A DNA stretch of 64,000 nucleotides from Escherichia phage p000v. The notes under the pieces were generated by a model. The model made no database searches and had not been told where the DNA came from. It worked only from the letters and a program-made list of their open reading frames with translations. Location: sequence record NC_055781.1. One strand, written 5' to 3'. This document shows positions 9,607 to 10,292 of this stretch, piece after piece. Both the position numbers and the translations under genes were made by a program. Each line of letters begins with the position of its first letter. Positions within the stretch are counted from its first letter, which is position 1.

Positions 9607-9837
9607 ATGTCTACTGAAACTATCGAAAAACTGCAGTCTGAAATCGTTACTCTGAAATCTCGCATTCTTGATACTCAAGACCAAGCAGCTGCTATCCAGC
9701 AAGAATCTCAGCAACTTGGTAGTGCTCTTGCTAAAATCGCTAATCTGGTTGGTATCACTGGTGAATCAGTTAAGATTGATGACCTGGTAGAAGCAGTACG
9801 TGAACTTGTTAAAGCTGAAACCACAGAAGAAGAATAA
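9607..9837 (+). CDS. 57A: tail fiber assembly chaperone gp57A
   Basis: 76-aa acidic coiled-coil ORF directly after gene 1, as in T4. Confidence 0.8.
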
Positions 9838-10292
9838 TGAAATTTGAGGACTTTTCACAAGGCCTCTACGTCGCAGCTAAATTTTCGGAATTAACACTTG
9901 ATGCGCTGGAAGACCTCCAGCGCAAATTAAGAATTCCTAATCCAGTACCACGTGAAAAGCTTCATTCAACAATTTGTTATTCACGTGTAAACATACCATA
10001 TACTACATCTAGTGGTAGTTATTCTGTTGCCGAATCAGGACACTTTGAGGTATGGAAAACTGACGACGGCGCTGTACTGGTTTTAGTTCTTGATTCCGAA
10101 TATCTTAGATGTCGTCATCAGTATGCACGAGCTTTAGGTGCTACTCATGATTTCGACGACTACACTCCACATATAACGTTATCATATAACGTTGGCCAAC
10201 TATCATTCAGTGGTGATGTAGCTATTCCGGTTATTCTCGACCGTGAATACAAAGAACCCTTAAAACTAGATTGGGCCGAAGATCTAAAATAA
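9837..10292 (+). CDS. 57B: 57B protein, 2H-phosphoesterase fold (Acb1-like anti-CBASS nuclease candidate)
   Basis: 151 aa; two H-x-T/S-x motifs (HSTI, HITL) about 80 residues apart; position after 57A. Confidence 0.75.

Follow-up and report, generated by a model that had tools for sequence, protein, structure and literature searches.

An intact acb1 (57B) gene, predicted to encode an anti-CBASS phosphodiesterase, in the RB69-like Escherichia phage p000v

The stretch of DNA analysed here (the window) comprises 64,000 nucleotides of Escherichia phage p000v (NC_055781.1). Its first 25 kb are approximately 96% identical to various Mosigvirus genomes, and p000v is therefore an RB69-like T-even coliphage. 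The gene order in the region of interest is gp3 (tail completion), 1, 57A, 57B and internal protein, as in T4 and in the annotation of phage ATK47 (Mosigvirus atk47). Gene 1, which encodes the dNMP kinase (Pfam DNMK), spans 8868..9602 and lies just before 57A, the tail-fibre chaperone gene (9607..9837, + strand; Pfam GP57, E = 5.9e-23; phrog_1002), while the gene of an Ip7-like internal head protein (10369..10680) follows the gene that is the subject of this report. The latter, acb1, extends from 9837 to 10292 on the + strand, stop codon included; the open reading frame list gives it an ATG start, a TAA stop and 151 encoded amino acids, and an earlier examination of the letters without database searches (the sequence-only reading) had delimited the gene exactly. 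The designation 57B that was proposed there is likewise correct, as the gene follows gene 1 and 57A as in T4, whose genome annotation has 57B immediately downstream of gene 1 and 57A and ahead of ipI, and the encoded protein aligns with T4 57B without gaps at 85% identity. At the nucleotide level acb1 is 100% identical to its counterpart in ATK47 (KNT12_gp106) and in several other phages; megablast with the gene matched 153 phage records, and tblastn with the protein detected a homologue in 1,468. Antisense coding was considered and dismissed: the sole - strand open reading frame fully within acb1 encodes 30 amino acids (10160..10252), and a second one, also of 30 amino acids (9766..9858), covers the first 22 nucleotides of the gene.

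The TAA stop codon of 57A overlaps the ATG of acb1 by one base (TAATG; junction AGAATAATGAAA), an arrangement that probably reflects co-transcription and translational coupling of the two genes. A scan of 8000..11500 revealed no promoter immediately upstream of the gene, and no site resembling a terminator separates it from 57A; the 18 sigma-70-like sites in the same interval represent no clear excess over shuffled sequence (12.7 +/- 4.0). Because an upstream promoter was not identified and the sigma-70-like scan was not clearly above the shuffles, the transcription unit is one that we infer. The T4 late-promoter motif TATAAATA is found at 9245, inside gene 1; the + strand of the whole window has only five copies of the motif, and this one is therefore regarded as no more than a candidate late promoter. 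T4 57B itself has been reported as a middle/late gene, and in T4 infection the cleavage activity of its product appears approximately 15 min in (PMC9117128); the timing in p000v would be expected, from this orthologue literature, to be similar.

The internal-protein slot just 3' of acb1 displays a cassette polymorphism (window 10293..10760 versus ATK47 record 4457..5260). ATK47, which is 100% identical to p000v over 57A and acb1, has two genes in the slot (Ip1-like and Ip7), whereas p000v has a single Ip7-like gene whose product shares 65% identity with ATK47 Ip7; a sequence resembling Ip1 or T4 IpI was found nowhere in the window. Near-100% identity to ATK47 resumes at the next gene, a tRNA.4 homologue, from 10747. 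The mechanical open reading frame of this homologue is 10726..10932 (68 amino acids, ATG at 10726), compared with an ATK47-annotated extent of 10747..10929 (61 amino acids, 100% identical), and the true start is probably at 10747, just after the second of the promoter/hairpin elements described below. Four + strand copies of a composite element, consisting of GTTTACA, a spacer of about 17 nucleotides and a -10-like box within a hairpin that ends in CCTATCA, are present at 10305-10345, 10680-10720, 18006-18046 and 34238-34278, and two of the four flank the variable Ip gene. On informal comparison these elements resemble PeSL promoter/stem-loop cassettes. Such cassettes have reportedly been proposed, by Arbiol et al. 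in 2010 and Comeau et al. in 2014, as mediators of modular shuffling among T4-type phages. Elsewhere in the window, tblastn with T4 e located an e orthologue at 21556..22038 (+ strand, 83% identity) and a second match at 4555..5046 (- strand, 40% identity), which presumably reflects the lysozyme domain of gp5, the baseplate hub.

The 151-residue product of acb1 is matched by the Acb1 family profile PF23474 over all of its positions (1-144 of 144) with 197.3 bits (E = 1.3e-58), exceeding the gathering threshold of 27 bits by 170 bits. The same family is annotated on every one of the 85 database homologues that have any Pfam annotation, the 86th being a 99-residue fragment that has none. Against sequences in the PDB the sole strong match was Acb1 of the Erwinia phage FBB1 (7T26/7T27; E = 1.1e-58, residues 9-148), and BLASTP against T4 57B (NP_049750.1) returned 129 identities in 151 positions (85%), with 0 gaps and E = 2e-102. 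The sequence-only reading had equated T4 57B with Acb1, and this was accurate: activity-guided fractionation identified T4 57B as the enzyme that degrades 3'3'-cGAMP, which was accordingly named Acb1, and nine further Acb1 homologues were all active (Hobbs et al. 2022, Nature 605:522, PMC9117128). Between acb1 and T4 57B nucleotide identity is 75%, with dN = 0.126, dS = 1.96 and a dN/dS ratio of 0.064 that is approximate because dS is near saturation; purifying selection on the gene is clear.

The sequence-only reading drew attention to two H-x-T/S motifs, HSTI and HITL, about 80 residues apart. Both are present and are the only H-x-[ST] motifs of the protein, HSTI at H43 (nt 9963-9974) and HITL at H112 (nt 10170-10181); the spacing was wrong, as 69 residues separate H43 from H112. 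It should be emphasized that at least two H-x-[ST] motifs also occurred in 13.6% of 20,000 shuffles of the p000v protein, and the motif pair was therefore dropped as stand-alone evidence. Since the pair is not beyond chance, the assignment to Acb1 is founded on homology. The position of the two motifs, on the other hand, lies far beyond chance, as both coincide with the catalytic columns that are invariant in a family to which the protein as a whole is matched. In an alignment of 39 family members, which share 30-85% identity with p000v Acb1, the first catalytic motif (H43-S44-T45, 9963..9971, + strand; H44 and T46 in T4) has H43 and T45 invariant, and in the second (H112-I113-T114, 10170..10178, + strand; H113 and T115 in T4) H112 and T114 are invariant and I113 nearly so. 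The complete set of invariant residues is G9, Y11, H43, T45, S49, L81, V82, G101, D105, P111, H112 and T114, and E140, W146, I113 and L115 are conserved in at least 90% of the 39 members. Loss of the catalytic histidines on careful alignment had been named in the sequence-only reading as the outcome that would count against it; H43 and H112 are both kept.

A three-way alignment of the p000v, T4 and FBB1 enzymes, in which residues were mapped by script, places these positions in a functional framework. The active site of T4 Acb1 contains an HxT/HxT tetrad (H44, T46, H113 and T115), its Y12, W74, F107 and W147 stack on the bases of the ligand, and E141 contacts adenine N6 (PMC9117128). All nine residues named by Hobbs et al. 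2022 are identical in p000v, each at the T4 number minus 1, such that Y12, H44, T46, W74, F107, H113, T115, E141 and W147 correspond to Y11, H43, T45, W73, F106, H112, T114, E140 and W146. Thus, the tetrad H43, T45, H112 and T114 is aligned with that of T4 and FBB1, the base-stacking aromatics (Y11, W73, F106 and W146) and the adenine-N6-reading E140 are the same as in T4, and none of the 22 substitutions that distinguish the p000v protein from its T4 counterpart lies at any of the nine functional positions. The alignment to T4 Acb1, a check that had been suggested from the sequence, therefore retains all the catalytic and ligand-contact residues. Residues 144-151 (10266..10289, + strand; 145-152 in T4 and FBB1) correspond to the C-terminal lid, which together with the stacking of W147 was described by Hobbs et al. 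2022 (PMC9117128), and include the nearly invariant W146 (T4 W147).

It might be argued that the open reading frame arose by chance, or is an inactivated remnant, with coincidental H-x-T/S motifs, given the frequency of the motif pair in shuffled proteins and the existence of inactivated acb1 alleles in related phages such as Bas43. Such an origin is refuted by the full-length ungapped alignment with T4 57B, which has the same start context and stop, by the location of both motifs on columns that are invariant in the 39-member alignment, and by the dN/dS ratio; a confident structure model also argues against it. That model, generated by AlphaFold2 with the 39-member family alignment as input, has a mean pLDDT of 89.5 and a pTM of 0.82, and is poorly defined only at the first three and last four residues. 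The low pLDDT at 148-151 is consistent with a mobile or flexible lid. The predicted structure has a compact fold of the 2H phosphoesterase type and bears a C-terminal lid. When compared with the PDB using Foldseek, the model matched apo FBB1 Acb1 (7T26) first, with E = 2.3e-19, TM scores of 0.85 and 0.94 when normalized to query and target, respectively, and an rmsd of 0.9 A. This was followed by the 3'3'-cGAMP complex of the same enzyme (7T27), then by the phosphodiesterase of Burkholderia phage BCSR5, and then by LigT, Usb1, CPDase and rotavirus VP3 (TM ~0.5).

The presence of LigT among these structures is relevant to how the family has been annotated. RefSeq and PHROGs-derived records, including that of T4 (NP_049750.1), label Acb1 orthologues as 'RNA ligase'; in many GenBank records acb1 is a 'hypothetical protein', and in a few it is a 'phosphodiesterase' or 'cyclic phosphodiesterase'. 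Taken literally, the label 'RNA ligase' would make the p000v protein a LigT-type enzyme of RNA ligation or RNA repair, acting as a 2'-5' RNA ligase or as a cyclic phosphodiesterase on RNA ends. This proposal, to which phrog_755 (so labelled) and the RefSeq naming of T4 57B lend support, also draws on the fold that is common to E. coli LigT (Foldseek E ~1e-4) and on a weak match to the Pfam family 2_5_RNA_ligase2. The Pfam match (PF13563), however, reaches 15.9 bits, short of the cut-off of 27, and extends over residues 70-131 only, and the LigT structures superpose with TM ~0.5, rmsd values of 7-9 A and 12-16% identity, compared with TM 0.94 and 0.9 A for Acb1. Furthermore, experiments have established the orthologue as a cyclic-oligonucleotide phosphodiesterase, with no ligase activity reported (PMC9117128). 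A role in RNA ligation or repair is thus extremely improbable, and the label 'RNA ligase' appears to have been inherited from superfamily-level similarity. The appropriate annotation for the orthologues of 9837..10292 is Acb1, cyclic-oligonucleotide phosphodiesterase.

From the open reading frame, the PF23474 match and the alignment with T4 57B, we conclude, with a probability of about 0.95, that 9837..10292 is the acb1 (57B) gene of an RB69-like Mosigvirus and that its product, by orthology, is a small 2H phosphoesterase that is independent of metal and has an anti-CBASS function. The substrates, chemistry and phenotype that would follow are those established for T4. Hydrolysis of 3'3'-cGAMP, cUA or cAAA was shown for T4 Acb1 and the nine homologues; the reaction needs no metal, cleaves on the 3' side of adenosine and proceeds via a cyclic phosphate, and the T4 enzyme is inactivated by H44A alone or by H44A/H113A (PMC9117128). 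The p000v enzyme would thus be expected to bind cyclic di- and trinucleotides with 3'-5' linkages and one or more adenosines, such as 3'3'-cGAMP, cUA, cAAA and similar molecules. The ligand would occupy a U-shaped pocket lined by Y11, W73, F106 and W146, over which the C-terminal lid may close, with E140 predicted to read adenine N6. The tetrad H43/T45/H112/T114 would then drive attack by the adenosine 2'-OH on the 3'-5' phosphodiester, leading through a 2',3'-cyclic phosphate intermediate to a linear 3'-phosphate product. Removal of the second messenger would leave the CBASS effectors without activation, and the infected cell would be spared abortive-infection suicide. In T4, deletion of acb1 causes a plating defect of more than 300-fold on CBASS hosts (PMC9117128), and in a transposon screen 57B was conditionally required on a CBASS host. 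Hobbs et al. 2022 make no mention of RB69, and no assay of a Mosigvirus or RB69 Acb1 is reported there (PMC9117128).

Both 2'3'- and 3'3'-c-di-AMP are also degraded by T4 Acb1, which can set off Panoptes guard systems. Tests against these systems covered the BASEL T4-like phages Bas35-45; inactivation of acb1 allows phages to escape Panoptes, as illustrated by the nonsense allele of Bas43 and by Bas35 escapers. The p000v allele is intact. The p000v enzyme could be an Acb1 that has moved away from T4 in the range of its substrates, for example by sparing the Panoptes decoys (2'3'-c-di-AMP or cA3) or by cutting a signal that T4 Acb1 cannot (cGG or 3'2'-cGAMP). All that speaks for such a shift are the 22 differences from T4, several of which are non-conservative (S30K, V56T, P57T, E63S, M95Q, P121Q and Q129A), and the documented Panoptes selection on acb1 through escape mutations and the natural Bas43 nonsense allele. 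All known ligand-contact and catalytic residues, however, are those of T4, and activity against 3'3'-cGAMP and cAAA is retained by more divergent homologues such as FBB1 (63% identity) and nine more. A dN/dS of 0.06, moreover, indicates conservation and not diversification. We thus consider an altered specificity to be very unlikely, and an Acb1 with the substrate range of T4 remains the preferred interpretation.

A second anti-CBASS gene, acb2, the homologue of T4 Vs.4, was located at 25650..25916 (+ strand). It encodes 88 amino acids with 65.5% identity to T4 Vs.4 and matches PF24729 (Acb2/Tad1 hairpin domain) with 65.7 bits. The mechanical open reading frame list contains only a longer, TTG-started frame at this location (25482..25916); the ATG at 25650 fits the T4 start. 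Judged by sequence, p000v, like T4, has both acb1 and acb2. With the two genes intact the phage is predicted to resist many CBASS systems and, on account of these same genes, to be sensitive to Panoptes-type guards that sense the loss of decoy nucleotides. These predictions are of relevance to host-range forecasts and to the choice of phages for therapy. Beyond annotation the gene is of little importance, as the family, structure, chemistry and role were established in 2022 and identical or near-identical copies are present in at least 153 sequenced phages. The acb1 of p000v is an ordinary intact copy of the already known T4 57B/acb1 and represents nothing new.

Compared with characterized systems, p000v Acb1 is a textbook orthologue in its sequence score, catalytic tetrad, ligand-contact residues, fold and synteny. 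It shares with T4 Acb1 the same HSTI and HITL motifs, the nine functional residues and the genomic position, preceded by genes 1 and 57A and followed by an internal-protein gene. The p000v protein is, however, one residue shorter at the N-terminus and carries 22 substitutions; its gene overlaps 57A by one nucleotide (TAATG), compared with four in T4, and the downstream neighbour encodes an Ip7-type internal head protein and not IpI. FBB1 Acb1, at 63% identity, superposes on the model at 0.9 A (7T26) and has the same H-x-T/H-x-T tetrad, tyrosine, glutamate and lid tryptophan, but F and Y replace the W73 and F106 of p000v and T4, and FBB1 carries a one-residue insertion after the beta-hairpin. 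A more distant lid-bearing 2H relative from a phage is the BCSR5 phosphodiesterase ('Anti-CBASS protein Acb1', 9Q2G/9Q2Y), with which the H-x-T motifs align (sequence E = 0.007; Foldseek E ~1e-8, TM ~0.65). This 165-residue protein differs in sharing only ~16-18% identity with p000v Acb1 and in its looser superposition (rmsd 4-6 A). With the wider 2H superfamily, which includes E. coli LigT, Usb1, plant CPDase and the rotavirus VP3 2'-5' PDE, p000v Acb1 has in common the fold class, the twin H-x-T/S motif and, by orthology, probably the metal-independent cyclic-phosphate chemistry. The similarity to these enzymes is limited to TM ~0.45-0.55 and 10-17% identity, and they act on RNA ends, 2'-5' oligoadenylate or Appr>p and not on the cyclic oligonucleotides of immune signalling. 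Finally, Acb2 (T4 Vs.4) resembles Acb1 in its purpose, the neutralization of CBASS signals; in contrast to Acb1, it has an unrelated fold and sequesters the signal without hydrolysis.
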